A stretch of DNA of 64,000 nucleotides. Origin: Psilocybe cubensis (lineage: Eukaryota). The DNA is taken from NCBI GenBank assembly GCA_017499595.2, contig CM039001.1:1302001-1366000 (forward strand), in the 5' to 3' direction. A program made the translations under genes and the position numbers. This document shows positions 7,894-64,000 of the stretch, in pieces (positions within the stretch are counted from its first letter, which is position 1; each line of letters opens with the position of its first letter). The notes below the pieces were generated by a model. It did not search any database, was not told the DNA's origin, and saw nothing but the letters and a program-made list of their open reading frames with translations.

Positions 7894-9185
7894 CGTGAAC
7901 TGGCTGAGGTCTCGAGAAGAAAACAAGGAAAGCTGGCACACTAGGCGATGCTGGCCTTCCCCCTCACTTTTTTGCCGTCTTATATGGTCCACAAGAATTA
8001 CACCATTCAACCAGAAAATATGGGTGCATATCTGTAAATTACTTTCGAACGCATGGTCATGTTCGATAGCAAACCTCAGCGCATGTTGTCGAATCAAGAT
8101 ACCTCCAAAATTTAGTGGTGTTGTGACCACTTAAAGAGATCGGCTACAACATTGTGTGGGTCGACTACGACAAGAAGGGGCCAAGACTGAAGAGAGTACC
8201 AAGAATTTCAATTTGAGGGAGTCACCACAAAGGCGCTGTCCCCAGATAGCTTGCCGTCAGATGGGTGTGTCGTTTACTGAAGCAGAAACGCGCGGGCGTT
8301 GAATCGTAATAGTCACCGGAATTAATGGACATCGTATCCCGCACAAGAATCAAAGATAACGCCATGGCAAACCATCGTGAATAAGGCTCGGAACCAGTTG
8401 ATAATCAGGGATTGCTTGTGGAGGACGCGCGCCTACATGACTGGACGGAATGTAAAAACCTCTATTGCAGAGAAGGTTGATGGGAAGACGGGTTGTGGAA
8501 CTGTGCATTAATGAATGAGCTATATTGGCGAGCAAGAGATCTGGGGTAGGTACGACTGTGCAGGACTCGACGAGTGTCGTCGGACCCTGATCTGTTGAAG
8601 TTGGGGCTCGGACGTTATGTATACATCATCGATGCAATCCGACACAAGAGGGCTTCCGACAGCTTAAATTGGGGCATCCAATTGGCTTCCAAGTTAGGGC
8701 AGGGTTTGATACCTCCCGGCCGGTCCGTGTGATAGTGGTATAGGTCTGGCGCTCTCAACCGGTGTGTTACTTGTGTTTTAAACAGGTGTTATACCACGTC
8801 ACGTGACTGTCGGACTTTTTACATATGACTGGTAAAACGACTACTAATTCTCATTTTTTAGGCTGTTTATGGCTTTACCAACAATTTCTCCAATATATAA
8901 ACAATAAATACAATACATATGTCACTTTCTCAAAGGCGCACAGTACCTTGGGCAGTTTGTGCGCCGTTTTCAGTCACATCAGGGTACGAGGTAGGGGTGT
9001 CACATGAATGTGACCCGCGAGTCACAAAGGTCGAATTTCGACAATGTTTGCAGTCTGCACGCCGGGGCATGAGCTGCTAAGGTATGAAAGGTGCGCGGTT
9101 CAATAGTGTATGGTACTTGGTATGATTTCGTGTAAAAAATTGATGTCACAGCAAAATGAGTATAAAGTAATATCTACCTGTATGA

Positions 9186-12100
9186 TTAAACAAAGTTATC
9201 TATGTTCCATTCACCCGGTTTGCCTTGAGCAAAGTTTGAATCATCATCGTGAGTTGTCCTTTCAAAAAATAATTTGGAGCCCGGTCCATTTGTGTCAACA
9301 TTGGTGATGAGCAAAACCAGGTTTTTATCATCAAGTTGCACAAAGGAAGAAATGTCAAACCGGTCAGATGTGCGAGTGAGTTGGATGGCACCTTCAGAAG
9401 TAGAGTTGGAGATGTGCAAAGCAGAATCCATGCGGTTGACTTCGTCCAAATCATATGGATCGGGATTATTGAACCATAGATGTTCCAAAGCCGCAGAATT
9501 GAGTTGGGGGTCAACATTGTCCTTGTTGACAAGGTCCATTAGCGTTGGAGCGGAGAATGTAGAGGGAGCTGAATTCATAGGAGATTCGGATATTGTGGAA
9601 AGATGAACACGAGCGCTATGCTTGAATCCCTTTTCACTGAATCCATTGACATAGTAGTCGTAAAGCTTCGCTGAGCTAATAAGATGCTCTGGAGTAATAG
9701 AGCTGCGACGTGCAGCATTGAACCAGCCAAGACGAGAGGCTGTTCTTTCATCACAAATCTCTGAAGGAGAGATGGAAAATATTTTGATTGCAACTCGCTA
9801 TAAGATAGGTCAGCTAAATGTGGCACAAAAATCGCAAAAATAAAGCTCACTGCAAGCAAATTACTGTTTGAATCTTGTGCAAATTGGTTCCACCATTTAA
9901 GAGGTTTTGTATTGCGTGTCAGGGGAGCTTGTTGGAACGGAGTCTGATTATAAGCATAGGCAATTAACTGGCGGATTAGAATGGGGACAACTTCCATTCC
10001 TGAATCTTGTGTGCGTAGTTGTTCGCCTTGGAAAATACAGAGAACAGATGTGAGAAGCAGCTTAAAAAGAGTGGGATAATTTTCTTTGGTCAATGCTTGG
10101 TCCTTTGAAAGTGGCGGCATGACAAGTTGTATTCCTCCATATTGATGAAATACTGAAGAATAGTTAGATATTAATTGGTACAAATCAGTTAATTAAGGAC
10201 ATACATGGATGAAGATAATATGCAAGAAAATATATGTGGTGAGACGACTCTTTCATCATCTGATTAAACCGATGATTGTAGATGTTGACAACTTCACTTC
10301 GAAGATTTCCAACTCCAATAACAGGAGATGCAAGAACTTGCTCCAAGTCGTATGCAATGCAGATCCAGCTATAGAAAACGTCGGCACAGGTAGTATTCTG
10401 ACCTTCGAGTGTAAGAATTGCCTTTGCTCCAGATGACAAAAGCGAGATAAAGCCATTCATAGAAGCCATAAACAAGTAGTGTTGAGCACCATCTTGAATA
10501 TATGGTAGAAGCTTCTTTGTCTGACAATAAAACTGTTAGAAATGCTAGTAAAATATGGGCATAAATATGTACCGGTGGAGTATCAAACTTTAGAACGTTA
10601 GATTTAATACACTTCTTGATCAAGGGCATGCAAGTGTAGACAGAAACAACTTGCGTATAGCTTGACGAAAACCGTGTGTCAGAATGTGACCTGATTCCTT
10701 GTGCCACTCCATCAACTTTGCGCTGAATATCCAGATGGAATGTGCCGTAGTTTGACTTTCCAAAATAGTTTGCAAGTGCAGATGAAATTGACAAAGTCTA
10801 CATGTATCAAATATTTCAACATCATAAAATTAACAAAAGTATTGTTTACATACGTCTTTAAAAAGCTTCCCGAGATCTTTCATGAAGAGATTCAAATTAT
10901 GACACGGATCGTAAATGTTAAGAATCCATGGATATTGCTTGTTGATTTTAATTCGAGCTGCTCGAACATTTGATCCACCATCACCTGCTACTGCACTATA
11001 ACGTTTTATGCCATATAGATTGAGAATCTAAACACAAACTTGAATCAGTATAAGTATAGAAAAAATTGGTTTAAAATTTACCCGTAAAGCAGCATCAACG
11101 AGAACTTCACCTGTTACAGAAATTCCATTGAAGACTCTTCCATCCGTAAAGAAAGATCTTCGTTTCGGAGTTGTTGTATGAAAAGTATAGATTTCATCCT
11201 TGGACCGTGAACTCCAGCCATCGAGAGATAGTGTAAGATGTGTCTTGCTTTCAATAAACTGTAAAAAGCTTTCACTCCAAGCAGAAACCTCTTGAGCAAG
11301 ATGTTTCGGAAAGAATGAGGAACGATCCGGAATGGTAAAATTTGGAGCTAAAGCAAAGCAAAAATTGACAAAGAACTCGCTGTCCATTGTTGCCCAGGGA
11401 AGTGCACAGCATATAAACATACGAAACATATGCAGCTCAATATTGAGTCGCTGCTGCTCGGTGATCTTTGCCGGATTCATGTACGTAAGAATACTAGACG
11501 GTTTGTTGACAGAAATAGACACTGATTTGCCGCTGCTCGTAATCCGATCAGATGAAGAAGAGACATTTTCGAGTTTTTTGGTGTGTGAACGAGAAGCGAG
11601 ATTCTTCACAACCAGGTTATACCAGTTTGGAAAGTTTGTAGCCAGCTTCTGAAATTTAAAATGAATGATATAATACTTTGAATATGCAAAGACATTACAT
11701 ACAGTACATTCCTGTGCATGATTTCTAATTCGAGTCGTGTCTCTCTGCACAGCCGCTCTATCACATCCAATGCAATAAACAATAGCTTTTGTTTTGACAG
11801 ACCCCGGAATTGATTGTTCAAACTGCAGAGTTACTGCATCTGCAAGATTGTCCCGAGTTTTTCCGCCTTTTCGAGCCTCACTGATAGACTTGGGGCCCCG
11901 AATAGGCCCAATATCTTCTCCAGGCTTTCCACTATCATGCAAGAGCTTTCTTTCAGCAACAAGCTTTGCACGATAATTGATAGCTTCTTGAGAGCCACCA
12001 ATACCAAGAACACCATCAGAAGATCCTGTGACACCGACAGATTCACATGGAGTTGAGTGTGGGAGTGTAGAGGCATCCAAAGATAGACCGTTTGAAGGCG

Positions 12101-12382
12101 GCTTAATTAAGAAATATTAGCTATACCGTGAAATGTAATAAAATTTTAAAAGCTGGACATACCGTAGGCCATGGTAAATGTTCTCCTTCTTTGTATATCC
12201 GTGTCCAAACCTCATTCAGCTTCTCCATGTATTGACTCCAGTCCTTCCAGTCTTCGCTTTTGTGATCCAAGATTGTTGAATTGACAGCATCCATTAGATT
12301 GGCAAGATTAACACCGTTATCTCCAGAATGAATAAATTGTTGACATAGGTCAACTAAAGTTTGGTAGTTGTTATGGTCTAGC
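9186..12382 (-). CDS. hAT-family transposase; original start codon displaced to 24671-24673 by the KDZ insertion
   Basis: BED-like CIGCD...IRNHAQEC finger, RNase H-fold LSLDGWSS, AGDGGSNV...YDPCHNLNL, DTRFSSSY, PLKWW and C-terminal dimerisation-region IFSISPSEICDERTAS. No stop or frameshift noticed once introns are removed. Confidence 0.9.
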
Positions 12383-12464
12383 CACCTGTAATTACCCTGC
12401 TTATATATAAAACCCTTGCACTGCAATAAAATGCTCCATACATGGCAGCAGGCACTTGCTGCAT

Positions 12465-12990
12465 GGATAATCTATTATCCATTTACTTAGTCTGCCTATC
12501 AATTATCCATTCCGTTATCCAAGAGCCTTGTTATCCATTATCCATTCCCGTGTGCGCCATTAACAATTGTTTCTATCCATTGTCCGCCGTATCATCCAAA
12601 GGGTACATTATCCATAGCCCCGCTTCATGATCCAACAGCCGTTATCCATTTCTGTGCGCGCCATTAATAATCTATTCCATCCATTGTCCGCTGTATTATC
12701 CAAAGGGTACATTATCCATAGCCCCGCTTCATAATCCAACAGCCGTTATCCATGTCTGTGCACCCCATTAATAATCGATTCCATCCATAGTCCGCCCTCT
12801 TATCCAAAGGGTATATTATCCATATACCCCTGAATTATCCAACTGCCCACTATCAATTTCCATGCAAACCATTCATGACCCGCTCTATCCATCATCTGTA
12901 TTCTTATCCATGGGTCATTTCCCCCTTTCATACCACGATATTCATTGCCCTGCGATTATCCAAGAGCCGTTTATCCACTCCCCTGCGCCT
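12465..12990 (+). repeat. Left subterminal tandem array of the KDZ element (about 104-bp unit, TTATCCAT-rich)
   Basis: Unit CCAACAGCCGTTATCCAT...CCATTAATAATC...TCCAAAGGGTACATTATCCATAGCCCCGCTTCAT recurs, e.g. at 12632 and 12736, with about three good copies plus degenerate flanks. Confidence 0.9.
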
Positions 12991-13201
12991 TATTCAACAC
13001 TATCTTCCAAGAAAACAATTACAATTCCAAGAAAACATACACTATAAATATACAGAATCACTAAAAGGATGTCAAGATGTACAAGGTACGTTCTGTCTGC
13101 ATCAGCTGGATGCGAGCGCAATAAAAAGCTCAAGAGAATTGAAAAAAACAGTCTGAATGTCCAAGATCACGTGTCAAAAACAAATGCCAGCGCATCACGC
13201 C

Positions 13202-16053
13202 TCAAGCCTTCGCTTTCTTTGTTCTTTTTTCCTTCCCAGTTTCCTCCGCCGCCTTCCTCTTGTTGTTCAGTTTCGCCTTTTGGAAGGTGTTGAAGGTGTT
13301 GAGTAGGTCACTTACTGCTAATTCCCAGAGACCATCCGAGGCTTGAGCCGAGTACCACCACTTTAACCCAACCATCACTGTCAACAGCCCATTGGGTCCA
13401 CCTTTCCGTAACGAAGCCATTGAATCTTTTGCCTTCGCAGTCTCGAACGACAACGGAAGGGAATTCGGGGTTTTGGTTTGACGCCACGCCGGCTGTATGG
13501 AGTTCCACCAGGTCATCCATGACTTCTGAAATTCGTCTTGACGGATAGCTGGGATAGCGGTGTATTTGCGGGATGAGGAAAGCCATTTCCCGAGGGCTGT
13601 TGGTCTGCCTTTCGCGGGGAGCCTCAACTGCAACGGTAATCAGTATCTTTATCTGCTTTTGTGCATGATCCGGGACTCACAGAACTCGTATCCATCTCAG
13701 CAATTTCCATTCTCTCGAAACTCTCCCATGCGCGCACACATTCCTGCCATTTTTCTACCTCGATATCTTTGAATAGATATTCACTCGCTGCCAACAGCCA
13801 TGCTGTGGTCTGTGGAGCATCCTTCGAAGCTGCTGCCTTTCTGTTACGACTACGCGTTGCACTGGCGTCCAAGTTCTCGCTTTTGTCTGGAGCCGCAGTC
13901 AAAGGTGCATGCATGCCACTCTCGGGAATAATTGGATCGTTTACTGCATGGTTGGATAGAACTCCAGCTGAGTTTGTGGCGCTGAGCACTGGCGCTGACG
14001 TCTGGGCAGGGACTATGGTGTGAGGTGCTGAGATGGAATGGTTTGGGTCCAATAGCATCGGTGCGTTTGCCTGTCCTGCCATCATATCCTGACTTTGTAA
14101 CATTTGGCCATGTAAACCAGGAAGCGTCACTGTGTTGTTTGTGTTGAGGGCAAGTGCGGTTCCCATCATGTTTGGATCCGCTGCGTACTGTTGCAGGGCC
14201 AGGTCAATTCTATCCCATTCCTCTTCTGAAAAGTTCAAGGTAAGTCCATCGCCCCTATTCGCATCACCCGCTTGTAGCCGCATCATATCCTGGCCTACAG
14301 CAGCTGTCAACTGGTCTATGTCTTGGCCACCAACTCCATCCGTCATAGAAATGGCAGCACCATAAGGCAAGAACGCAGCAACTGGATTTGGGGCCACCTT
14401 GGCCTGTTGAGGTAGAGGATTGGCAGGCGGAAGGAAGTTTTGTGCCTCAATGGTAGCGTGGGTAGCACCATTTGTAGCTGGGTAACAAGGTGGGCTTGGA
14501 CTTGCCACACTTTGAGTCGGTTGCACCTGAGCTGGTTGGACTGTGCTTTGTGTCATGACAGGAGCCTGAGCAAAGCCGATGGCCACCGCCGGCGCCGCTG
14601 TCATAGAGGCCATTGCAGTCTGTTGTGCGGCCTCAGGGGGAGTATGAGCTGCAGTTATGGTGTTTGGAATAGGGCCAGAAAGCTGAGCGGCACTTCCCAT
14701 GTGAGCATTGGTTGATGAGATGGGTACTGATGCAGCTGTATAAGTTGGATGGAAGGGCACCTGATTGATAGCAATTGGAAGGCCAGAAAGCTGAGCGACA
14801 CTGCCCATGTGAGCATGGGTTGATGAGGTGGGGACCAACGCAGCTGGGTCGGGCACCTGATTGACAGCGATTGGAAGTGCATTGCTCTGAATCTCTGGTT
14901 GTGTAGTCACAGGGGGAGTTGTTTCCGACAAGACATTTTCTTGCCCTGCGTCGCCGGTTTCAACTTTGCTGGTACTGGCAACTTGGTTCTCTTCTGGCTT
15001 TGCCTTTGAGCTATTGAGAGTTTGTCGGTCGCGATCCTCTTGCGCTAAAGAAAATGGTTGATTAGGTCACTATGTGTTAGAAATACAGATAAATTGCTCA
15101 CAGAAAACATTGTATAAAAAAAGTCTGAACGGCGATAGCACATGTTGGTAAAAATGTTCATTCGCAATAGAAAACAGTTGTTCATATTTGTCTCGACCGT
15201 TGTGGACAGCGACAGTACGAATTTTGCCTTGATCAGCAGGCTCAGGTCCTCCAGCAATTACTGTGAAAACCCATCCGGTACGACTGCTCATTTCATCTAT
15301 AAACGCTTGGATAGTTTCCGGCAATGTCAAGAGATTACTAACTTTGTATCAGTAAGACTTTAGCACAAAGAATAGATCACTTACATTGCGCATTCTTCTG
15401 GAGACATGACTTCCGGCATGTCAGGAATTTGTCCCTTCAGCTCCTTGAGCTTTGCCAACTCGGCACGAATTTCCGCCTTTACCTCATCAGACTCGTCATT
15501 CCAGGCCTCCCCGGTGCACTTGTTGATGATTGCAATTCGGTGACCTTCAGGATTGGTGCGGAGAGCCTCTATTACTCGTGGCCTAATGCGTTCATCATAA
15601 TATTTCTTGGAATACAAATTTGTTTCCGAGAGAAGTCGGGGAGCGTTGTTGCCACCAATAACAATGGTCGGACCTCGCCGATGTTGGGTGCCGGCCCCAC
15701 GATTATTAAACCAATTAACAATTTGCTGTTACAAATATGACCTCGTCAAAGAAACTCATACACTAAGTATGAATTGTGCTTACGTTTTTCCGCAACTTAA
15801 CCCATTCTGCATGAGAAAGTTCGGTTTTCGTTTGAGGCAAAACAACAGGTGCATTTTTCTTTTTCTTCTTCTTTTTTGGAACAGTCATTGGTCTAACTTC
15901 AGCCTCAGGCGTAGGCCACAAGACAAAAAATTCTTGGTATATTTTTGTCCAAAAATTGGGGGTGGTTTTTGTACGCTGGGACGCCTGGAACTCAGGAACC
16001 TTGGCGGATAGAAACTCAATTTGTTCGGGAGTCCCCCACGGTAGCGGCGGCAT
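13202..16053 (-). CDS. KDZ cargo gene A: large protein with helical N-domain, HMG-box-like segment, low-complexity linker and Trp-rich C-terminal domain (multi-exon)
   Basis: Spliceable exons: MPPLPWGTPEQIEFL...FFVLWP, poly-Lys NLS-like run, YSKKYYDERIRPRV...EAWNDESDEVKAEI (HMG-like), RTGWVFTVIAGGPEP, and WMTWWNSIQPAWR...LRKGGPNGLLTVMVGLKWW. HMG-type genes are known companions of fungal KDZ elements. Confidence 0.75.
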
Positions 16054-16355
16054 TTTGATCTAAGTATAGCAGTTGTTCTAAGAATAAATGAATGTCAAAT
16101 TGTTTGTTTTTTAAGCGCACGCAAACTCACCTCAAATAACAGAGTTAGACTTAAGGTCCAGAAAATGCAGTAAGACCTTCTAGCTACTTCTTCGATTTGA
16201 CGGCAATAGCTTGCTTACATTATTGAGAGATTCACCGCAATTTACCGTGTAACTGTACAGTTGCTGATGCTTCTTTGGACTCTGCATATAAAGATGCTCC
16301 TATCTGCCGCAATCTTATCCTTAACTCCCTACTCGCAAAAAAAACCTCTCACAAA

Positions 16356-17425
16356 ATGGCTCAACAAAGTACACCTCCCCCAACTCTCCCTAATTCTACC
16401 GTCCCTCCCTCTACCGCCCCTGCAAGCCGTATAATGTCTACCCGTGTTGGCGACGTTATCAATCTCCTTCTTGCACTAAACAATGCTGGTACGTGCCCAT
16501 TTTTGAGTTTCATGTTAATTTCAACTTGTTTACATTTAATCAGGATTAGAAGTTGTTCGTACACCCGATGGCGTTGATCATGCTTCAGGGTTGGAAAACC
16601 TTGCCATGGGGGAGCTTATCTTGATTCTCCAAATCATGGGCATTCATGTCAAGGGTAATCGCGCTACTGCTGCACCCCCTCCTCCTTCTGATAGTAAGTC
16701 ATCTTCGACTCCCTTTAACCTAATGTTTTATTTAATTGGACTGTAGGCCGTGATCCCTTGGTCCAAGAGATTGAACAGATGGTTATTTCATCTGCTCGTC
16801 GTCAGGCTATTAATCTTTTCTTTAGGCTTACCAATGGGCCGTTGAGTAAGTGAACACTGTTCATACTATCATGCTCAGCACAATCTAATTAATTTTAGCC
16901 GTCCCACCTGTCATTCTTGAAGAGTTATCATCAACTGTGGCTCCCCCTCCTTCGTCTGTTGAACCACAGGCCACCGTCACTGATCCTGCCCTACTTCCTC
17001 CAAAGTCCCAGTCTGCCTCCGACACTGTCATGCCCAAAGGCTTTGTGTGCATGTCCTGCAACACGTATAACCCTATTCGCCCATCTGAAAAGCCAGTCTA
17101 CGTTGTGTTTTGTGGTACAGATGTGGGGGTCTTTGACCATTGGTATGTTCCACATTCTTTTGAGATTGCATTTTGCTCAATTTAACACATATTTAACAGG
17201 AAAGATGCTCAGAGCCTTGTTTCTGGCATATCTCATGCTTGCCATTGTCGTTATAATAGTCGCGAGGAGGGTGAGAGGGCGTTCCAAGCTGCTTTGACTG
17301 CCGGAAAGGTTCGCATACTTGGTAATCCTATTGCTGCGCCTGGAGCTATTGTCTCTTCCTTGTCCCCAAATGCCCCCAATGGCACCTCTGGCTCCTCCAG
17401 CGAGGCCTCTAGTAGCTCGGATTAA
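16356..17425 (+). CDS. KDZ cargo gene B: protein with RNase H1 N-terminal (hybrid-binding/caulimovirus viroplasmin-like) domain preceded by a CxxC motif
   Basis: Spliced C-terminus reads FVCMSCNTYN...PVYVVFCGTDVGVFDHW|KDAQSLVSGISHACHCRYNSREEGERAFQAAL, which fits the YxVxxGxxxGVFxxW...V.G......F.S..EA..AF pattern. TAA at 17423-17425. Confidence 0.8.
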
Positions 17426-17775
17426 TGAGTAGACTTACTCCACCCTCGGGGTTTTTCCTTTTCCGTTCAATATCGTGTAGACAGCACCATTTGTCACCGC
17501 GTATGAAAAGTTTCCCCGCACTTTTAGTAGCACCACTTGTATCTCTTGTACATCTCATTTTGATTTCTTGTCTGTGTTTCCGAATATATCTTGAACTTGT
17601 GCTGCTCTCCATATCCGTGTGAATGAAATCTTCAATAATCAAATAAAATATTATTGAATGTCTCTTTTGTAGAGTCATTATATTATGCCATGTACCCCCA
17701 TGCACCGTAGCTTCAATGTCGAACGATATACAATGATGTTTGTACTATATTAAAAGTCCAATAGAAGTAATAACC

Positions 17776-18469
17776 CTATTGCGAAACCTTTTGAAATTCA
17801 AAGGATTTAGCATTGTAGTTGCGTTCAACGAATTCAAGGTCTTCCATTGCAGTCAATTCAATCTCTTGCAACCAAGATTGTGTCTTCTCTAGCAGTTTTG
17901 CAAGAGCGACTGTCTTATTCCACTCTGGGCCAACTCCTGAACACATATATATATGGTTTTTATATCGGGAAATTGGCCCAAGAAAGTGCTCTATCTTGTC
18001 AACCGATTCCGATAATTCGTGCATGTCTTGATTGCTGATAAACTGGAGGCAGATTGCCTCAGTATGTGCAATAGGATCCGATTTGATAAAGGTGTTGAAG
18101 CGCCGGTAGACTCGAAGAACTTCGTCCAACCAAGTGGCCGCCGGTGGCTTTGACTTGGAGACAGGCTCTTGTTCAACAGCCTGTGCTTTACGTGCCGTTT
18201 CAATTCTAGAAATGAAGATTAATTCAATCTATAGAGATTATGCACATTCATAATCAGCAGGAATACCTTTTTTGTTGGATGCGAGCATATTTTCTTCTGC
18301 GACGTCGGTTTATGCTATCCTTGCATCTAAAAAACATTATAAAACATGTTTGTAACCAGATTTATGGGAGGAAAACAACTGAATGCTACTTCTCATAATA
18401 TTTCTTGCTCTTCTGCCTATTTGCGGCAAGTTTCTCAGCTTCAGAAAAATACTTGCGCTGTCGTCCCAT
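17776..18469 (-). CDS. KDZ cargo gene C: small protein with highly basic N-terminus and helical C-domain
   Basis: Exons MGRQRKYFSEAEKLAANRQKSKKYYEK / CKDSINRRRRRKYARIQQK / ...WLDEVLRVYRRFNTFIK...WLQEIELTAMED, joined by canonical introns. Confidence 0.7.
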
Positions 18470-19049
18470 TGGTAAAGGTGAAAGCCAGGTAGCGATTTAT
18501 TAGAAACTTTGCATTACTTACACGCCATTTCAGGGCTTCGTCTGACTTTTTTAACTACCAGGTAAACCCCCCCTCCAAAGGGTACCAATTGAAACATTGA
18601 ATTAATCTACACTCAACTCTCGTCATCCAGAGCTTTACAACCATCTGTGCCGATGTTCTATGGTTTTTGAACTCTGCAAGATAAGTTTTCAGGCTATGTC
18701 TAGACTGGGATTGAAAATGTAAAATAATAATAGAAGACCTTACCGTCATCCATTTGTTCGTTGGCTATCAATGGCTGGCAGCACCCTAATGTCAACCTTC
18801 AGCTTCATTATCCATTTACTAGTCCTTTATTGATTGGGACTTACTTTACCGTCATCCATTCATTCAATTGTTATCCATGAGTTGTTTGCAACACTCTTGT
18901 CCTCGTTGTCCATTTCCTTGCCTGTTATTGATCAATTATTTTTGCTGACTCGCTGCTTATAAGTTGGGATGAACGCCACAAAACTCATCTGCATCACCTT
19001 TGACCTGCCCATAGACACCACTATCGCGTTTATCAGCAACTCACAACCA

Positions 19050-19578
19050 ATGGCCAAGGTTAAGCAAAGACGCCGTCGTACAGATAATTTCAAAGGTCCA
19101 TCGGTGAGTAGACTTGAGCCTGATTGTTATAAAATGTGATCATTTTTACTAAATTGTCGTTCAAATTTGTAGGCAGTCACAATAGAGCCCGGCATTAGAC
19201 CAGTTACATTGGATACGAAGTCCAAACAAGACAAATTTCTCGCCGATGCTGGCCCATATTATCGCCAGGCCAAGTCTAAGGGAGAAAAGGAAGAGTTTCT
19301 TCACGAAATCAGCCAACTTTGGTTTAGAATTTGGCCGGAGGATCCGTTGAATACGGCAGACATTGATTTTGCACGTCACAGACAAAAGAATATTATGAAG
19401 GTGAAAGTTGTGTTTATATTTTTGTATGCCGCTAACTAACGTCTATATGTTACAGAAAATCAGAACAAGGCTGTTACTCCTCGGTGCCTTTGGGATTGTG
19501 GAAGGAGATACGTTGTGGAGGGACTTTATTGCTGCCAAAATGCACGAGCTCCATCCTGACAAGCTACCCTCTGTCTGA
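19050..19578 (+). CDS. KDZ cargo gene D: small basic protein resembling the N-terminal domain of cargo gene A
   Basis: Three exons: MAKVKQRRRRTDNFKGPS / ...KQDKFLADAGPYYRQAKSKGEKEEFLHEISQLWFRIWPED... / KIRTRLLLLGAFG...LPSV-TGA. Confidence 0.65.
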
Positions 19579-19653
19579 TCTAGCCACTGTTTTGTTCGGC
19601 TTAATGTACCTACTACATAGTGGTCCAGATTTTAAATTTGCACAAATTATACT

Positions 19654-22600
19654 CTAGTGACACTCAACCATTTTGTATGCATTACGGCCTTCTGACATGG
19701 TCGTCAACTTCTCTGTTACACCATCCCATTGTTTCGCACAACGGTCACCTATATCACGTCGTATATCTGCCTGTTTCTTTGCATAAGCAATCTTACCAGA
19801 ATTGATAGCTTGTGCATCTCGGTTAGGTACATCCGTCGAGTCGATGATATCCTGTGCACGAGAATCCCACTGAGCGGCTTGCCAAGCAAAAAAAGCAATA
19901 ACACGGCGCATCTCCTCTGCTAATAATACACACTCCTCTTGCCAGCGATGTGCGCGTGCACGGGCTTTGCACCATTCGATACGAAGAGCTGGACACTAGC
20001 ATTTGTTTGCATTCAATTAGGTAAGGTAAAGACAACACACCTGCCTGTGTACACTTTTCGGCGTCTTCGCCCATACCGTGTACCTTCCATATCCAGGACA
20101 GTTTCTTGCGGCCTTCACTTCCAGAGTCGTCCATAGAGCTCAGTCCTCTAACATCAGTGTCCAGCAGTGGACGAAGGATATCACGCCACGTGTAGTATAC
20201 CGTTGGCGTTGAAAGCAAATCAAGAGCTTGATACGCAACATTGTATCGCGCTGTTGCAAATTTAATCTTTTCTTCAACAGCTGCGAGCAACGTCAAGCTT
20301 CTTGTCTGCATACGCTGTCCTCGTGAGTGTCGCTTTTTTGAGTTTAGCATATGTGAGCGAAGGAGTAAGAAAGCACGGAGGTTGTTGAGGCAATCTTCAG
20401 CCTGGGCATATCGGTACTGCGATTCGCATTTTAGCAATATGTGGGATGAAAATCGGATGGTTTCTGTGTTGTAGGAAGGCAAATATAGCTTGATATCCTG
20501 TACCGCTACTGGTGTCTCAGCCTGCAAGTTTTCGCGCGCACGCAGAGCTGCAACTGCAGGCATATAAAGGTGCTGTATATTTATCCAAGCATCAATGCGT
20601 CGTTTTAATGAGTTTGATCGTTCGAGAATTTTAGTCTGTTGGATGTTCGTAGAATGGGCTCCAAGTTTGGAGATGTCAAGCGCAAGTCGTGCTCTAGTCT
20701 TGTTTGTAACCATGTAAAAAATAGCCTATAAACGACGTACTGTGATTCCTCAAGCTGTAAGCCCTGTGATATCAAGACACTCGGAGTTACTTCCTCATGT
20801 AAAGTAGTCATCTCTCCGCGTTTTAATGCATCTGAGTCCTCACGAGCTAATTGAAGACGAACATCGGATTCCTTGACAGAACCTAGCAATGCACCATAAA
20901 CAATAGAACAAGAATCAGAAAAATACACGTACTATTCTTCGGAATCACATAGGGATTCGGTTGACTGGAGTCCTTTTCCCATGTCAAACACATCTGGGTC
21001 CATTCCGACGTCGATTCTTCTGGCAATGCAGCGTCAAACTCAATGAACGCCTCGACCTGTTCTTGTCGCTCTTGAATAGCTTCCTTCGCTTTCCGTAAAA
21101 ATGTTACAACTAAAGTGCTTGTCAATATATGTGCATAGATTGCAGAATATTACGACGTACCAATCGTGATAATTTTTCGCCAGTTATAATCTCCAAAATG
21201 GTCATCCAATGTGTCGTTCCGAGACCCTGGCCCCATTTCCTTTGTGCTGCTGGCTATACCGTTTGCCGTTGCCCATCCTCTCTCTGGTGCCTCCCCATCT
21301 GTGCGCCCAACTCCCGGAGTATAGTTGAAAGAGAAAGACGTTTGGCATTTCTGAATATGAGCAGCAAGGTGGAATTTTGGTACGAGGTAGACAATGGAGA
21401 GATTTGATGGATCGGAGAGCACATTCTTAGGATATAATTGGCACCTTTTCATGAGATTGATCCACCATTGGCAGGCAATGTCGTAGGAGACAACAAGACG
21501 GAGTAAAAGTGTGGCTGCGATTGTTGATAAGAAGAAATAATCCATATTAACGTATCTACGGCATCATGTGAGTCATGTTGACATGCAAGCATGTGACTGA
21601 AGACCTTACCTTTCACCCTTTTGTAAGTCTCCTACTGCCACGGGTCGCTTCATGTCGTGTCGACTACATTCGGCTGTACCAAGTCCACTTGCTGCTGTCC
21701 CATGTCCACCTCGTGAGTTAGCCGATTTGATAGCATCGTGGTTATTGCATGAGCTCTTTTCATCTGCAACTTGACCATCGTAGTTTGCCAAGTAGTTTTT
21801 GAATTTGCAACTCTCAACCATATAGGCATATCCATGATTAAGCCCAGGGTCTCGCTCATCTGTAGATACGTTCATTCGCTTCAAACGAAAGTTGGCATCA
21901 ATAGCTATAAAAAGAGAATAAAGCCATCTATTTTTGGACGTGACAATCAGACCCAATTGCCAGTGGACAACACCAACGAGTAAAAATTGGTACGTACTGT
22001 TCTGATTCTGGCCTCTCCTTCCAATTGTCGGGTAGATTGATGCCCGGGTGGGGACATGCAGGACATAGAACAGCACATTCACCCTCTTTAGTCCCATTAA
22101 CACCGGTCTCAGAGTGACCTCGACCCATCCGTTTGAGGAGACGTACATGACGCCACTCACGTATGATCCTCAAGAAGACAGGATATCTGTCCTACATATT
22201 GAATATTAAAGATAGCAGGATAATAGAAGAAATGGAAGAGCTCACTGGTGGTGCCTTTGTGCCGGTGTTGTCTGTCAACCGTGATAATGTAGAGTAATAC
22301 TCGTATCCCGAGACCTTCGAGTTAAATGAAAGGAGCTGAAAGTGTTCCAGCACATCAAATGTAGCCGCTGTTTTGGGATCGCCTACTGTAGAAGGAAATA
22401 AGCGGGCGCGAAGAAGTTGGATGGGCTTGGATGGTGCAGAAGGGCACCCGCAGTAGTCTAAGGCAATTTCATGGATTCCTGTACGCGCAATGACCACAAA
22501 TTCGTCGTTGAAAGCTACCATTGGTATAGGACAGTCATCATGTCCCAGCTGCACTCGCATTCCAAGTTTCTTGAGGCTGGTCCTGCGAAAGTAATGTCCA

Positions 22601-23354
22601 GTCCAGACCTGCAAATTTGTCAATAATTCAGTATCATCATAGCCAACCCCACTCGCCTCGATTCTATGAAATGGGTTGACCGAATGAGACCGGAGAACAC
22701 AAGCGAGACACAACAGAGATCCGCTCCAACAGTCTTTGCAGCGAAACGCGCCTGCTTCGAGGTCCGAAATACACCCAATTTCAGAGCATTTCTGGAGATT
22801 TGCCTGCCCACCAATACCCTCCAGCCGGAGAAACTCTTCAACGTAGGTGTCAATATGCGGAGTCCAGAAGTGGATGGGATGTGTCTAATCGAATATGTGA
22901 GTGGTAGGTGCTGAAACACACATCTATTAGAGCAGGAAACTGTACGTACCGATTGTGTTTTTCGTTTTTTCTGTGGAACCTCTTCTTCAGGATCAGCTTG
23001 AACCTTATCTCCAGTCTTCAAGTTTGGCTTGAGATAATTCTTTAGCCCCAATGCCTCCAATTCGCATTCTGCCATTTCTTCCAACTCAAGATCACCATCA
23101 AAAATCCTATACGGAGATTCTTCGCTCAGCACCCAATCAAGTCGAGGAGTAGGCGATTCCACAGAGCCTAGAGGAGGGGGTGTGGGAAGCATAGGCTGAA
23201 TTCCTTGCGGCAGCGGCATCCGTATGGTATGGTGCGTGCGTCCATGGTATTCAGTGTGAATGTCGCCAAACGATGCTGTTTTCGCGTCTCGTTCATCAGG
23301 AGAGATATATTCGTCATAATAAACCTTTTTCTTGCGATTCACTCGGCGTTTCAT
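19654..23354 (-). CDS. KDZ transposase with N-terminal CxC2 cysteine cluster (multi-exon)
   Basis: CxC2 region (CKDC...CLACVLRSHSVNPFHRIE, QLGHDDCP, YCGC, QLLRARLFP), ECAVLCPACPHPGINLP, and KDZ core LFIAIDANFRLKR, ECSRHD...GDLQKGERYVNMDY, VSYDIACQW, VPKFHLAAH, GRTDGEAPERGWA. The predicted catalytic D-D-E residues are present. Confidence 0.95.
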
Positions 23355-23479
23355 GTTGTAAGTTGAAAGAACCTGCGAGCTAAGTGTATACACAAAAGAG
23401 ACAAGGAAGCTTTGAACAGAAACGTCATTTCCAAGGAGACTAGAAGCGGAAACAAGAGGATGTATAACTCATACTGATA

Positions 23480-24570
23480 TGGATTATTAGCTCAGAGTGG
23501 TTGATGGATATTTTACAAGGAAATGGATAGACTTCAAACATTGATGGACAGTAAGGAAAGGTATCAATGACAGTGAATGATGGGAAATGTTACGGGGAAC
23601 CAAATTAATAAGTGCCTGATCTTCACGGGTGACAAGCGGGATGGATTAACGGGAGGCCATGGATGACAAGGGCATTCAATAATCAACGTTGGTATGGATG
23701 GAGACTGCGCACTGCACGGGTGTCAAGAGTGATGGATAAGTAGAGGGGCAATGAATGATTAGGGCAATAAATGAGCGCGATGGATAATGAGAAGAGAAAT
23801 GGATGTTGAGGGTGATGAATAATGAACGCACATATCGATAGGCGCCTGCACTACGCGGGTGTCAAGCCTGATGGATAATCAGAGAAATGGATGTCGAGGG
23901 CGATCAATAATGAATGTGGGAATGGATGAGGGGCAGCCTGTGCAATGGTGGAGGGCGATGGATAATAAGAAAGGCAGTTGATGTCGAGGATGATGAATAA
24001 TGAACATAGATATCGATAGGCGCCTGCACTGTGCGGGTGTCAAGCCTGATGGATAATCAGAAAGGCAATGGATGTCGAGGGATATCAATAATGAACGTAC
24101 ATATTGATAGGCACCTGCACTGCGCGGGTGTCAAGCGTGATGGATAATCAGAAGGGCAATGGATGTTGAGGGAGATCAGGCTGATGGATAATTATATGGG
24201 CAACGGATGACAAGGGCAATGAATAATGAACGTACATATCGATAGGCGCCTGCACTGCGCGGGTGTCAAGTGTGATGGATAATCGGAAGGGAAATGGATG
24301 TCAAGGGAGATCAGGCTGATGGATAATCATATGGGCAACGGATGACAAGGGCAATGGATAATGAACGTACATATCGATAGGCGGGTGCACTGCGCGGATG
24401 TCCAGCGTGATGGATAATCAGAAGGGCAATGGATGTTGAGGCCCATGGATGACATACTAGTTATGGATTACGAAGGGGTATGAATGACAGCGTGGGTATT
24501 GAATAATGGCTCAGCAGTTTGGGGAATACTATGGATAAAGTTCTAATGTATCTATCATAAAGGCGTTGGA
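23480..24570 (-). repeat. Right subterminal tandem array of the KDZ element (about 90-135-bp units, ATGGATAA-rich)
   Basis: Core ATAATGAACGTACATATCGATAGGCGCCTGCACTGCGCGGGTGTCAAGCGTGATGGATAATCAG occurs near 23820, 23998, 24088, 24223 and 24358, plus a degenerate copy near 23700. Its ATGGATAA octamer is the reverse complement of the left-array TTATCCAT. Confidence 0.92.
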
Positions 24571-25565
24571 TAATTATTGATGGGGAATGCATTGCCGTGG
24601 CTCATATATGAGGTATGCGCAAGGTCTTCTGGAGGTTGATATATAAGAACGACTGCTACGCCTCGTCTAGCATAGTTGATAGAGCAGTTTACTGGTAGAA
24701 CAAACAGGACAATCGACGATGAATGTACAATAAATAATTTAGACCGAGAAATTCCGATTTTTATTGCTCCCGGAGAATCACACCAGTAAAACACACAGAA
24801 TTTCCGCCTCCAGTCGTGTTATTGGTATATCACGTGTGTTACATTCGTGTAATACCTTGGCGTGGTATACCGGTATGTAACAAACCCTGCACTATTCCAA
24901 GTTGATCCCAAGAGACTTGTTTACATAGAGCTTGTGCGGCATGATTTTGATAACGAGCGAGCGACAGCGTGTTGAGAATGCTGCCATATGAACAGATTAG
25001 CAAGTGACCGCAAGTCGGACGGGGTAAGTGGGAGTTATGAACCCGTTACTACCCCCGGGCACACAACGCGATTTTGAGAACGTGAGAGACCTAATGATGG
25101 GTTCTCAGTATCATTAGACGGCATTCCTTTTATTACCACTGCTAGCTTGTGTTGTCGTTTTTCTTTAAAATATTTCAGTTTCGTTCAAAGTTCATGCGTA
25201 ATCTCCTCCAGGTTCAACAACTGTGAGAAGTACACACCGGTTCTTAGATTGAAATTAATAACATTCCTGCCCTCTGTCAGCAGAGCTCGTAAAGAGCTAT
25301 AGCATAGATACTTACCTCCCAATACATTTTGTTTCGCGTGGATGAATAACTTCTTAGAAAGAGCCGCGTGTCCTGGATGATCTCGTTGCCTTCTCGCCGA
25401 CAATAAAGTATAATGCAAGCACAAGCCCACGTGTTAATTTAAATAACATAAGATTTAAGCTACAAAGGTTAAGTACGTGTTGACTTGGGCATACATCTTG
25501 CGCACAATGTCCCCCGTTGAGATATATGCCTCAGCATGAGGACCTTAAAATTCGGAAGAGTTTTT

Positions 25566-26754
25566 TCAAGCTGAGATGCCACGGTATGTAGCGATTTGTG
25601 ACCTGAGACGCGTAATTTGTCCAGCTGTGAACTCAGTCATGCATGAGTCGTCTGAGTAGTCCATGAAGTTGTCTGCAAGTAAATTAATTGAGCTTCCTGC
25701 TGTACCATGCGTGGATGTGCAACAACGTACGAATGGGGTCAACGCCAGGGGATTTGCAGGTGTCGCGACCGGTTGGGCACCCAAAAGCAGCAGAAGCCTC
25801 GGCCGGTGTGTCCGAAACTTGGTCGCCTAAGCCTGAACAGCCTCCTTGGAAAGTGTGGTACAGACCAACCCAGTGGCCGGCTTCGTGAGTCAAGGTCTAG
25901 AAGATATTGAAATGTGGCTGATGATTAAAACTTCCTAAAATAAAACCTACCTGACCAAGGTTGTACGGAGAAGCGCTACCTCCTGGAAGAGAAGAGTATA
26001 AGATTACAACCCCGTCGTCACTGGGTGCACCAGAATAATCAGATGGAAATGTGGAGTAACCGAGGAGCCCTGCACCGGCACCAGAGTTGAATCTATAGAT
26101 GAAATAAATGAGTAGGTGAAGGAGTCACCCTGGTGAAATGACTAACCCGACTGTGTAGACATTGAGATCTTTAGGGCCGCCAACTCGGAGAGATGATTTC
26201 ATGTCTGTTTGAGACGATGTGTCAGGCCCCACGCCATTGAACCATCCTGAGTTGGTGGTATGGCTAGTACTGGCAAGGACCCAGGTTATACCTGCACTGG
26301 CATAAGCCTTGTTCATGACAGCAATTTGATCTTTGATTTGGGAATCCCTGGTAGTTTGTTTGGTACGCTTCTTTCCCGTAAACATGAAGACGTGGCGTAC
26401 GGAATATTGCCTCCTAACAATGTATTATTTTGTTGAATGACATGAAAATGAACCTGCAGGAGAAATTAGCAAGGGAATTCTATCAACTGCAATGTCCGGA
26501 AGTTACGTTTATAGTGGCAGTAGATGCAGATGCAAAAGAAGGCACAGTGACTTTGTTTGCATTGAAATGGGCTTCAGCCTTTGCGAGTTTTGCATCGCTG
26601 ATGACCGTCCCACACACTCTAACAAAGGAAGAGTCAGAGATATATGATACTCTAGTAGCGATAACATGAACCTTTGTGCAATAGTCGAATTCAAAGGTGT
26701 CGCAAATGCTGAAGTCGCGCTAAGGAGCGCGGTGATCAAGGGGAAGCTGAACAT
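25566..26754 (-). CDS. Secreted M43 zinc metalloprotease, paralog 2
   Basis: Signal peptide [54 protein letters not shown]. Closely similar to paralog 1. Confidence 0.93.
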
Positions 26755-56240: not shown

Positions 56241-59110
56241 ATGTCCGACAACCTCCATCTCAGGCCCTCCGCCTCTCCCCCCATCGTCCGTCCAAAGCCA
56301 AGCAGGTCCACCACCATTGGCGTCGTCCGCGGAAGGACCTCACCCACCCCTGGCGTCGGCGAGCAGCCTGCAGATGGCAGGCCTCCCACAAAACGCGCTC
56401 GCAAGGCTATCAACTGCGAGCCCTGTCGGAATAGCAAGCTCAAATGCGACAGGTCCCTTTTTTCTGTCTGGTTATGACTCTGCAGCGTGCTCATTCGTCC
56501 TATTTCGCAGGAATCGTCCGTGCTCGTCGTGTGTCCTCAGAGGCATGTCATTTGCTCGCCTTGCGGCTCCCATGTTTATCGGTAGGGGGATCTAACATAA
56601 CCTTTTAGGCACGTCTGCAATGTGCTATCAAGATGCCAGAGCCCATGAAGGCAGCGATCCTCACACCCGCGGAGATGATCAACCGTTAGTCACCTGTCCT
56701 TTGATTGTATTCAGTCCACAGCTCAGCCTTGCCCTTTTAACTGCCACTAGTACATATACCCGCATCGATCCTGCCCAGGAGATCGCACGCCTGCGCCATT
56801 CCATCTCACTTCTTGAGGCCTACGTTTTCCCAAACCAGAGATCGAACGCCCCTCAGCGGAGACCGAGCGACGCACATGCATTGGTCGTGCCGAAGAAAGA
56901 GACAGTTGAGGCGGATGTTACAGAAAAAAGTGCCTCAGCAATTGGCATGCTGGGCAGTCAGGTCCAGGGTGGACTATATGCGGGACCAACAAGTGCCGCT
57001 ACCCATCTTATAATGGTAAACCTCATTTTTGTTTTGCTCTTGTGTGATGTAAAAGAATATTGTGTTTAGAACGAAGGTCGCGACTCCGAAGACTCGGATG
57101 CTCATAGTCGTCAACATAGTCAGGATCGTGTCAGCGATGATTTTGCTTCTGTCACTCAAGATTATGACCGCGACCTACTCTCTCTCCTACCTACTCTCGA
57201 GATTATCGACGGCCTACTCGATTACTATTTTGAATATTGCAACTGGATTTATCGGCACGTCAACCAGACCACCTTCACACACCAATGGGAGAAATACAAA
57301 AGTGGCGTCAAACCCGACCGTGTTGTGCTATCAACCGCTTGCGCATTGATGGCAATAGCGACACATTACTTACCAACTCAACATGCTCTACTTGACAAGT
57401 TCAACGAGACGCATGAAGAAATCGGAATCAAATTCTTTGAGGTTTCCACCACATCGCTGCAAAAACACACCTCAGAATCGAGGACATACACACTAGAGCT
57501 TGTGGAACTTTTGCTTGTACGTACTCATTTTCACAGTCTAGCGAAGACCGACAGCGAGGAAATCTGGCACGTTACGGGGGAATTGGTCACCATTGGCACC
57601 GCTATGGGTCTTCACCGCGACCCCGGAAAATGGAGAATGCATCGGGACGTCGCCGAACGCCGGCGGTGGGCGTGGTGGCATATCATCTTGCTAGAGCGGT
57701 CAGCGTTTTCTGCACCCTATTTCCGGTTGGATTCTGACTTGTTGATTGATTTCCATTCCGATTAGTTGGCAAGCCTTTTTGTTCGGAAGGCCTTTATCGA
57801 TCGCATCGCACCACTTCGATACTCAATTACCAACATATTGTGACCCCGCTCTCGACAAGACGGGACGTTTATACCTTCCGAATATTGCGTTGTTCCGCCT
57901 TGCTTTCATTCTTGGAGATATTATGGATGACGCTGTTTCCATTCGTCCGGTCTCTTATGATAGTGTGCAGGCTAACGATCGTGCTCTTACCCAGTGGATG
58001 GAGACCTTGCCGCCGGAGTTGGACATGGATGAATTCCGTGTAGCCCGAAGTCTAGCTTCTCCCAGTGTTGCCGTACGCAGATTAGGTGTTCAAAGCGTGA
58101 TTATTCGAACTTCGTACTATCATATCCGCTTCACCCTTCACCGTCCTTACGCAAGTGCCAGTACAAATCCTTCGAACAGTAGCAAAGTGCCCACCGTTGA
58201 TCCTGCCAAGTCGGCCCAAAGCTTAGAAATCGCTGTCAGTGCTGCGGACAAACTGATCACCATGGTTGGCCAGTCTCGTCCCGATTTTCTGGCAAATTCA
58301 TCACTGGCTGTACCAGGGCACATGAATTGGCAACCTTTCCACTGTTTCTCGGCCGCGATGTTTTTTTCGTTCCAACTCATAGCAAACCCTGATCAGCCAG
58401 GTGCTGGTCTTTTCAGGGCGAGTATCCGCAAAGCTATAACAACTTTAGAACAAGCTAGAGGTATTGTGGTTGCTGATAAAGCCCTCGACATCTTGAACGC
58501 GCTCTGTCCTTTATATTCACCGGATTTCCCGCTCGAGTCTGTAGAGAGCCGAGAGAAGAAGCGCGCGCACGTCCTCGGTACAGTGCGTAAGTTGGCTTTC
58601 CCGTACCACGATTCGCACGATCCCCGGCGGTTCGGTGATTCGCCTGGTGCAAGGGGCGCCATGAGTTCGCCCGCGAATTCCAGTTCGGTAAGCCCTCCGA
58701 TGCCAGTGATACCTGCCCTTCCGCAACACTCTTATGATCAACCTCATAATTCTGTTCCTTCTATCCGCAATGCTGCTACCACTCTATATCAAAATCATCC
58801 ACAGCAGTCACATCCTTTGCCGCAGGGACATGGAGGACAGAACATTCACTCTCCGCAGAATCAGCCGCAGATGGTCAGCCCACATTCACAAAACCTGACG
58901 CCTACACCAACATATCAGACGTACAATAACCCACCGAACAATATGTCTCATCAGTCACAACAGATGTATGATCCAAATCGATATTCATACGTTCAGGTTG
59001 AAGATGCCATGTGGGGTGCCGCTGTTGGCTTCGGGCATGCGGAGTGGTCTCAATTTTTGGACAGCACTCGGACAGAAGGGCAATCAAGTAGGCATCTACA
59101 GGGTTCATAG
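56241..59110 (+). CDS. Zn(II)2Cys6 transcription factor with fungal-specific TF middle domain
   Basis: NCEPCRNSKLKCDR|NRPCSSCVLRG...C, and GTAMGLHRDPGKW...ERRRWAWWHIILLERWQAFLFGRPLSI. Confidence 0.95.
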
Positions 59111-62400: not shown

Positions 62401-64000
62401 TCACACCTTGTGGGCCCTGAGCCGCGATGGCGAGCGGCCATCTGGCACTCCGCTCTATTTCACGACATCTAGCTACGAAACCCTCCCAGTCTCTCTTCAA
62501 GGCAGTCCAATAATTTGCATGTTGGAAACCACCTGTTTGGTGATCGCGATTCAAAGTAACAGTACAGCCGACAACAGCGGCAATGTTTTCGCATAGGCTT
62601 GAGTAAACAGCGCTGAGTTGCGGTGGTTGTGGTCCTGGGAGAGTTAAGCAAGCTTCGATGTATCGGTCTAGAGCTGTTCGCAGCGTAAGCGAAGAAAATA
62701 CACCTGGTTTCATAATTGCGGAGAGGAATTTCTCGGTTAAAGATCCAGGCAAAAGCAATTGTTCTTCCATATTCGTTGGAGTGAGTTCGGATTGCTGCAT
62801 ATATTCTGATGTTTTCCATATCGTAGGTGCGAGGTCGTGGGAGAGTAGTAGTTCGAAGTTTATTGTTGTTCTTTCTACAACCGATTGTCCTTGTCGATCC
62901 CAAAGGGCGTATAAATTATTTCCACTAACGGTGAAGTCCTGAAGATGACAATGTGCCGTGTTTCTGGGACATTCGATAATGCCCACCTCAACAAAGTGGT
63001 CAGTGGAAGTGTCAAGAAGGCAGAAGAATCCACCTGATGTCGAAGAAGGGGTAGGGATAAACACCAAGACATAGACATCGAGTCTGGTTTCATCTTCGGA
63101 AGCAACCGAAAAAACTTTGACAAGGTTTTGTCGTTCTGCATCGAGAAGAAGATACTTTGCACTAGCAGAAGCACTTGTAGAAGGTTCCTTCATATTGGGT
63201 GAAGCAGGGAGCATCTTTGAAGTAACGCAACCAAGCCTAGCTTTCCACATTCTAAGAGTACGATCTCGAGAAAGGGTCCAAATACTTCCGATATCTGTTG
63301 GCCATGGATGAGAAGACATAGATATGATGTCGGACGCGTTGGGGGAAGAGGAATGTATGGGAAGGAACGAAGTCAATGACGAAAGGAATGAGCCATGATG
63401 TGATACTGTTTCCGTCCATTCTTCATCTGAAGTATAAATATGTCAGTAAGCTCAAGCTCACGCCTGACTGTCAAGAGAAGGCATACCGTCATGTACGTCG
63501 TATCCCATAGTTTCCGCTTCAAGTCTGAGAAGAACGCCGCTAGGCAGACTGACAGCTACAGAATGCGTTCCGAGAGCATGTACAGAGCATTCTTGGGCAT
63601 GCTCAGTGGGTAGATTTTGAACGTAGTATTCCCTTGGCCATATATTGTCCGCTTGGTCGGTCCACAACTTGAGCCCGTCAATAGGAATGATAAGTCGAAA
63701 CAATGAACCTATTTCAGTAATCAAGATAATGTGAATTTCGGACTCCTCGAAAAGAAACAAAGAGGGTGTTGGAATGATAGCTGCTGGTAGCACAAATCGG
63801 AGTGGTGGAACTGGCGTTGACAAAGAGACGAGTTCCACAATCAATCCACCGTGTATAACACGCATAAGGATTGTTCCTGTCGCAGTGGTTGTAAGTACTG
63901 AGCTGCTTGTTGCATGTTCGAGAGGTAGGTCTGAGTCTGGGACCACTGCCAAAGGTGCATTTCGTCGCGTTGTTGGAACAATAACAGTCGATGCTGAGGT
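59463..64000 (-). CDS. Nucleoporin Nup160/Nup120 (5' end beyond the window)
   Basis: N-terminal beta-propeller-like exons (IWTLSRDRTLRMW), a long helical solenoid, YSRILYTWHIRRGDYRN, and C-terminal WLPYALIDQVL. Confidence 0.85.

Follow-up and report, generated by a model that had tools for sequence, protein, structure and literature searches.

We analyzed a 64,000-nt stretch of the Psilocybe cubensis genome (contig CM039001.1; hereafter the window, whose positions serve as coordinates below) in which a large transposon of the KDZ superfamily lies inside a second, hAT-like element. The KDZ transposon spans positions 12383 to 24664 (12,282 bp; minus strand, the strand of its transposase gene) and is flanked by two copies of GTCTAGC, at 12376 to 12382 and at 24665 to 24671. 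The neighboring letters differ at both copies, on the left (12375 G versus 24664 C) as well as on the right (12383 C versus 24672 A), and the repeat is therefore exactly 7 bp long. When the flanks are joined without the element, they read ATGCTAGACCATAACAACTAC (minus strand). As argued below, we regard this as very probably a complete, autonomous-looking cut-and-paste transposon of the Kyakuja type, inserted in codons 1 to 3 of the hAT-like element.

The transposase gene (P0001, 1085 amino acids [aa], spliced) lies at 19654 to 23354 on the minus strand and encodes a CxC2 zinc cluster followed by a KDZ domain of the DDE type. Pfam matched the minus-strand open reading frames (ORFs) to CxC2 (PF18803, E = 4.4e-40) and, over two exons, to KDZ (PF18758, E = 3.3e-40 and 2e-18). 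P0001 is 100% identical to a 1085-aa NCBI hypothetical protein of P. cubensis, onto which the exons were mapped. In an alignment of 22 sequences, chosen out of 120 relatives among the matches listed, residues D423, D544, E607, and E610 were invariant, together with a set of Cys/His columns, and the catalytic triad would be drawn from D423, D544, and E607 or E610. The KDZ domain, the N-terminal CxC2 cluster, and the invariant acidic residues are all features of the KDZ superfamily. Judging from these sequence features, the transposase is intact and the autonomous-looking element probably active.

We then sought sequencing runs carrying the left junction and compared four of them over positions 8000 to 26000: X1, a source-like run examined as contigs; X5 and X7, also examined as contigs; and X8, examined as raw reads. 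Half of the sampled words were present in X5, X7, and X8. All three of these runs contained a joint leading from 12375 directly to 24665, in which 12,289 bp are skipped (the 12,282 bp of the element plus 7) and 7 letters fit both sides, so that GTCTAGC stands there as a single copy. In X5 the empty site lay on one contig of 3,838 bp with no other letter, and in X8 it was covered by 10 raw reads with 7 distinct starts. The X7 contig (12,355 bp) ran on through the end of the hAT-like element to position 26000 and thus represents the same locus. The base-exact ends of the element and its 7-bp target-site duplication (TSD) are proven by these element-free alleles. A first-pass annotation, made from the letters of the window alone, had described the KDZ transposon as complete, with exact ends, a TSD of 7 bp, and almost no conventional terminal inverted repeats (TIRs), and had called for a search for an empty hAT allele. 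The empty-site joint, the Pfam matches, and the comparison of the ends confirmed this description, and the empty allele was found to read as predicted.

The distribution of the element among the runs bears on its age. The transposase was present with one substitution (V652E) on three further contigs, the protein encoded by a second gene of the element (the partner, described below) was identical across five contigs, and the accession numbers of partner and transposase were 4 apart at four loci. These protein records suggest that the source genome holds 4 to 5 near-identical copies. In X1, the interior was assembled as one 11,461-bp contig with a single other letter, at a word depth, itself a poor measure of copy number, of 62.7 against about 16 in unique flanks; the change in this collapsed contig, 21106 A>T, fits V652E. 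The X1 flank contigs reached 30 and 28 letters into the element before ending, as would be expected if repeated DNA starts exactly at the element ends and the words are 31 letters long. X5 and X7 had a depth of 0 over the interior; in X8 it did not exceed 0.21, within three bins that cover the transposase gene. Since the source carries about 4 to 5 near-identical copies and the three other runs none, these data point to recent movement of the element. As some of these three runs share their organism label with source-like runs, the element can also serve as a strain marker.

The two ends of the element are unlike. Read inward, the left end is CACCTGTAATTACCCTG followed by CTTATATAT and the right end GAGGCGTAGCAGTCGTT followed by CTTATATAT. 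The 17-nt left terminus thus occupies 12383 to 12399 (plus strand) and the right one 24648 to 24664 (minus strand), while the AT-rich box CTTATATAT occupies positions 18 to 26 from either end (12400 to 12408 on the plus strand and 24639 to 24647 on the minus strand). The termini agree at only 6 of 17 positions (2, 6 to 8, 14, and 16), whereas the boxes are identical throughout, a difference that the first-pass annotation had already pointed out. Among 200,000 shuffles of the two terminal 40-mers, 29 gave an in-register run of at least 9, and within the window CTTATATAT occurs twice on the plus strand and once on the minus strand.

Inward of the boxes, both ends carry opposed arrays of TTATCCAT-type motifs, 0.5 to 1.1 kb in length. 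The left array (12463 to 12977, plus strand) has a higher-order period of 104 bp and the right array (23479 to 24572, minus strand) has periods of 91 and 135 bp. Within the left 600 bp, 18 copies of TATCCA point inward and one is opposed; for the right 1,200 bp the counts are 15 and none. Subterminal arrays had been named at first pass and are confirmed. Elsewhere the motif was found 6 + 3 times in the 10,482-bp interior and 19 + 12 times in the 51,718 bp outside the element. The first inward TATCCA starts at base 94 from the left end and at base 93 from the right end, and 11 bipartite units, ATCCAT-N13-ATCCA, have a 19-bp spacing.

To place these ends among relatives, we used 80 KDZ loci from a scan of metagenome contigs (labeled L001 and so on), repeat contigs of a kind that may be chimeric. 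Among them, L001, an element of 11,788 bp with opposed arrays at both ends, resembles the element in the window in both types of terminus, in the order of its genes, and in size. Its left end (L001:2801) starts with CACCTG, as does the left end of the element in the window, and its right end reads GAGGCCAATACGTCGTT; its two ends are alike from base 19 inward, and its arrays start about 171 to 173 bases from each end, by arithmetic from the positions of motifs and ends. The right terminus contains GAGGC-N6-GTCGTT, a pattern common to the ends of L001, L003, L004, and L040. In a search of 2 x 528,587 bases, where about 0.25 occurrences would be expected, it turned up 4 times, in every case just beyond the transposase-side array; in the pairs L001/L003 and L004/L040 the homology breaks off exactly at GAGGC. 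Variants of this terminus were seen in L013 (ATCGTT), L039 (CAGGCC..GTTGTT, which corresponds to ..TG), and L026 (GAGGCC), while that of L065 is cut by the end of its contig; for L022, no exact ends could be assigned. AT-rich boxes at about positions 18 to 29 were also present in the ends of L001, L004, L040, L013, and L002. In a FastTree tree of 56 of 81 rows, from which rows below 70% coverage had been dropped and whose topology was read without support values, the loci with GAGGC-type termini or variants formed one clade together with the window. A second right-type terminus, GAGGCCATACGGTCGG, lies at L001:2572, 229 bp outside the CACCTG end, and may be a remnant of another copy.

Because related elements carry each type of terminus at the corresponding end, the two ends, as far as their sequences tell, look differentiated rather than unrecognized, and termini that are unlike yet conserved suggest that the left and right ends differ in function. 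It had been proposed at first pass that this family recognizes a positioned internal motif plus subterminal arrays instead of terminal identity. The box and the arrays are indeed present; the "instead" was too strong, each terminus being found again in relatives. The GTA common to both ends at positions 6 to 8, which had been listed as a shared feature, is not conserved in L001 and probably a chance match. We agree with the further statement that TIR-based annotation would miss elements of this kind, whose ends lack TIRs; their terminal patterns and arrays offer a way to find them.

The arrays were also compared among relatives, an array being called when at least one 7-mer had at least 6 copies in 800 bp. 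Such clusters were present in 20 of the 30 loci of at least 7 kb and missing from 10, and the 51.7 kb of the window outside the element, taken as a control, gave one such clustered 7-mer; a few of the clusters, for example in L030, L038, and L058, could be tandem repeats of an ordinary kind. The motifs themselves vary among loci (ATGGATA, ATTTGTA, AGGGAAC, and TGTATAAAGG). Sister transposases share them: the window and L026 have ATGGATAA, and L001, L003, L013, and L046 have ATTTGTA.

Besides the transposase, the element encodes a partner protein (P0121, 846 aa) whose gene has four exons by tblastn and lies at 13202 to 16053 on the minus strand, 822 bp from the left end; the corresponding distance in L001 is 819 bp. 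The partner has conserved N-terminal (about residues 1 to 255) and C-terminal (about 640 to 845) domains and matches no Pfam family. Its family comprises 1,485 representative clusters at E <= 1e-3, and the gene was found in 10 of the 80 metagenome loci. A profile of 45 members, out of 150 among the matches listed, matched a homeodomain (PRH, E = 0.013) in the PDB, with an alignment over "..RkkQlknWFnNr..". In Pfam, Homeodomain was matched by 2 of these 45 members (best E, 0.023), and HMG_box, which was below threshold in the ORF scan (E = 0.0096), by 1 of them.

Three further ORFs were conserved by tblastx in L001, L013, L039, and L046 and gave no Pfam match, namely, ORF A (16898 to 17425, plus strand), ORF B (17791 to 18496, minus strand), and ORF C (19173 to 19439, plus strand). 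L001 carries them in the same order, A-B-C. Compared with these four relatives, the transposase gene of the window is inverted relative to ORFs A to C; in the relatives, ORF C and the transposase share a strand, with ORF C upstream. Over 16889 to 17425, ORF A carries KPVYVVFCGTDVGVFDHW and, further on, AQSLVSGISHACHCRYNSREEGERAF, which we take to resemble the hybrid-binding domain at the N terminus of RNase H1 and caulimovirus VI; neither piece was matched by Pfam. The Pfam scan of the element covered P0121 and 29 ORFs of 64 to 480 aa, a range in which short exons may be missed. It returned no TET/JBP match, and the ORFs scanned likewise gave no hit to a recombinase, helicase, or DUF3435 family.

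The 7-bp TSD together with the lack of inverted ends assigns the element to the Kyakuja type. According to the text of PMC12730594, Kyakuja-1_LB and Kyakuja-2_LB have 7-bp TSDs, 5'-CA..TG-3' termini, and no TIRs, while Dileera and Zisupton elements have 8-bp TSDs. A 7-bp duplication without inverted ends was thus already published for Kyakuja in 2025 (PMC12730594). The element described here has this TSD and no TIR; its likeness to the CA..TG rule is limited to the 5'-CA. As that rule was reported for two families, it may not define the Kyakuja clade. With the TET-containing Kyakuja elements of Agaricomycotina, the present one has in common a KDZ transposase, an Agaricomycete host, the 7-bp TSD, the lack of TIRs, and the 5' CA; it differs from them in that no TET/JBP match was obtained among its scanned ORFs and in its 3' end, ..TC instead of TG. 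It appears to be a new member of the Kyakuja kind, TET-less in the ORFs scanned and probably active. The text of PMC12730594 is silent on arrays, end-specific termini, and a partner gene. The partner protein, the arrays, and the conservation of two unlike termini add to what was known of Kyakuja, on the strength of few elements. In the literature searched, we found no account of subterminal arrays or of a partner gene in KDZ elements, nothing linking Psilocybe with KDZ, and nothing on which CxC type marks which KDZ clade.

Mobile KDZ elements have also been described in Cryptococcus, in accounts (10.1101/2024.08.15.608186; 10.1101/2025.05.19.654958) that give sizes of 6.4 to 11 kb, extra ORFs, and insertions caught in genes. 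KDZ1 to KDZ3, of the Dileera clade, have TIRs of 139 to 241 bp, CxC1, and TSDs of 4 to 8 bp, mostly 8 bp, while KDZx1, of the Zisupton type, has 8-bp TSDs, undetectable TIRs, and CxC4 plus SWIM domains (same sources). Our element resembles the Cryptococcus elements in being large, probably mobile, and fungal, with a CxCn-KDZ transposase and extra ORFs, and shares with KDZx1 the lack of TIRs; it differs from KDZ1 to KDZ3 in its CxC2, its 7-bp TSD, and its TIR-less ends. The statement made at first pass that fungal KDZ elements are known mainly from their transposases is outdated, complete Kyakuja elements and mobile Cryptococcus elements having been published (PMC12730594 and the two Cryptococcus accounts).

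Fish Zisupton belongs to the same superfamily and is likewise a cut-and-paste element; it differs in its 8-bp TSD and its TIRs. More distant systems offer parallels for the ends. En/Spm (CACTA), Ac and Hermes (hAT), and the P element carry many subterminal sites for an element-encoded DNA-binding domain or a second protein, and in Tn7 and Mu the left end differs in function from the right. The transposases of these more distant systems are unrelated or only distantly related to the KDZ transposase, and the systems have, in contrast to our element, true TIRs and TSDs of other lengths. To our knowledge, the biochemistry of this group of KDZ transposons is untouched.

These observations can be combined into a mechanism. 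The arrays would be coated by a DNA-binding module that the element itself encodes, be it the CxC2 region, the homeodomain-like partner, or both; this module would bring the two unlike ends together and set the DDE core on the termini, with the AT box at positions 18 to 26 as the innermost positioned contact. The DDE core would then cut at the end-specific 17-nt termini, integration would proceed by cuts staggered by 7 bp, and the unlike ends may enforce left-right pairing. More tentatively, and with the odds rather against it, Kyakuja-type elements might in general be two-protein transposons in which CACCTG and [C/G]AGGC-N6-GTYGTT ends enforce pairing and a homeodomain-like partner family, widespread in basidiomycetes, is dedicated to the ends and reads the arrays. 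If this were true, they would be the fungal counterpart of En/Spm with its TnpA and TnpD or of Harbinger with its Myb partner.

The arrays and the AT box could, alternatively, not be recognition sites at all, with the transposase reading only the 17-nt termini and the arrays acting as promoters or silencing targets or being carried along as neutral, satellite-like DNA. This is in keeping with termini that are conserved across families while the array motifs differ and with the 10 of 30 long KDZ loci that have no k-mer cluster. Moreover, only about 125 bp separate the ATG of the transposase (23354) from the right array, whose inner edge is at 23479, and the promoter may therefore lie inside that array. 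We nevertheless consider this reading unlikely, since the inward polarity is strict at both ends (33 versus 1), the arrays are equidistant from both ends (94 and 93 bases in the window, and likewise in L001), and sister transposases have their array motifs in common, all of which fits binding sites of an element-encoded protein, as in En/Spm, Ac, and Hermes.

Far less probable is that the element-free strains lost the element by precise deletion between the GTCTAGC copies and that the element is old and perhaps immobile. A 7-bp direct repeat could serve microhomology-mediated deletion, and contigs alone cannot separate excision from absence. In X5, however, the hAT copies (word depth of 322 versus 85 in the flank) all read through the site with no other letter, the interior is wholly absent from three runs, which would require the loss of every copy, and the source copies differ by only 1 letter in 11,461 bp and 1 residue in 1085, as expected of a recent spread. 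We give still less credence to the block having been moved by machinery other than KDZ, such as a tyrosine recombinase, a Helitron, or a Starship-type captain. Three internal ORFs and a partner protein without assigned function leave some room for this, but the scanned ORFs held no family of that kind, the 7-bp TSD matches that given for Kyakuja in the text of PMC12730594, and the arrays and termini at its borders are found at other KDZ loci as well.

Several points weigh against the preferred reading of a Kyakuja-type transposon whose two differentiated ends are served by its own proteins. The 7-bp TSD is based on one insertion and on the published Kyakuja data, and the assignment to Kyakuja was made by TSD and ends rather than by a tree of labeled references, while the 3' end, TC, departs from the published TG. 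L001, the sole relative with both ends on its contig, has no TSD (CAAGTGG versus GAATGAT), which the possible remnant of another copy at 2572 could explain, and a matching 7-mer was found upstream in none of nine related ends. L002 and L031 have a CACC[AT]G end on the transposase side, which limits the typing of ends as left and right to two elements, that in the window and L001. The homology of the termini depends on exact short patterns that were picked after the data had been seen, and nhmmer profiles of the termini built without the window missed its ends, the best hits (E = 0.3 to 0.6) lying elsewhere. The binding of protein to the arrays is purely what we infer from their arrangement, and the homeodomain likeness of the partner is weak and may be taken as a lead only. 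Two candidates in relatives were discarded: a CACCTG in L029 proved false as an element end, as homology with L049 continues through it, and a GTATGGC match near the ends of L001 was judged to be chance rather than a TSD, 6 shared 7-mers being found in 251 x 251 bases where about 3.8 were expected. Neither a second copy of the element nor a further end of this type was found within the 64-kb window.

What the locus offers is an element with base-exact ends, an empty allele, and a copy that is probably active for this group of transposons. Its defined ends (the 17-nt termini, the AT box, and the bipartite unit) and two candidate proteins are ready for a transposition assay.

The hAT-like element that received the insertion extends from 8695 to 24894 on the minus strand and measures 3,911 bp without it. 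Its TIRs, TAG[G/T]GCAGGGTTTG[A/T]TAC, lie at 8695 to 8712 and 24877 to 24894 (18 bp, 2 mismatches) and are flanked by an 8-bp TSD, TTCCAAGT, at 8687 to 8694 and 24895 to 24902. The corresponding empty site was found in X5 and X8 as a joint from 8686 to 24895 (one X5 contig and 24 X8 reads), while the site in X7 was filled by the hAT-like element. Loose ends at 8694/8695 and at 24894 in all runs show that it is polymorphic and present in multiple copies. The host element behaves like a hAT element, but the evidence from its protein is thin: the only Pfam match was DUF659 (E = 0.13), a search of the PDB yielded no relatives, and LDGWSS and the C-terminal motifs are candidate hAT motifs.

The junction rebuilt at the empty site contains an ATG (24672 to 24674, minus strand) that is preceded by an in-frame stop, with no other in-frame ATG between them. 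At a GTATGT donor 222 nt downstream of this ATG begins a 61-nt intron that leads into a 362-aa ORF. The junction had been described at first pass as the start of the hAT transposase; the joined sequence does exist, and its role as the transposase start is plausible, although no annotated protein contains exon 1.

X1 (one contig) and X8 (12 reads) also showed a joint from 9199 to 24856, which would correspond to a nonautonomous deletion derivative of the hAT-like element of about 544 bp. Differences among hAT copies (8800 to 11400) were mostly C>T and G>A, which made up 42 of the 69 differing places in X1 and 67 of the 107 in X8, an excess that may be deamination-like, similar to repeat-induced point mutation, or plain transition bias. 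A structural difference was seen to the right of the hAT-like element: contigs of X1, X5, and X7 skipped 200 bp (25643 to 25844), a joint that goes back was present at 25887 in X1 and X7, and X8 had loose ends at 25844 and 25887. The surroundings are gene rich rather than a repeat desert: Pfam matches at 776 to 2565, 46700 to 47869, 57070 to 57765, and 61157 to 63442 included Pyr_redox_2/BFD, a DEAD helicase, a fungal transcription-factor domain, and Nup120.

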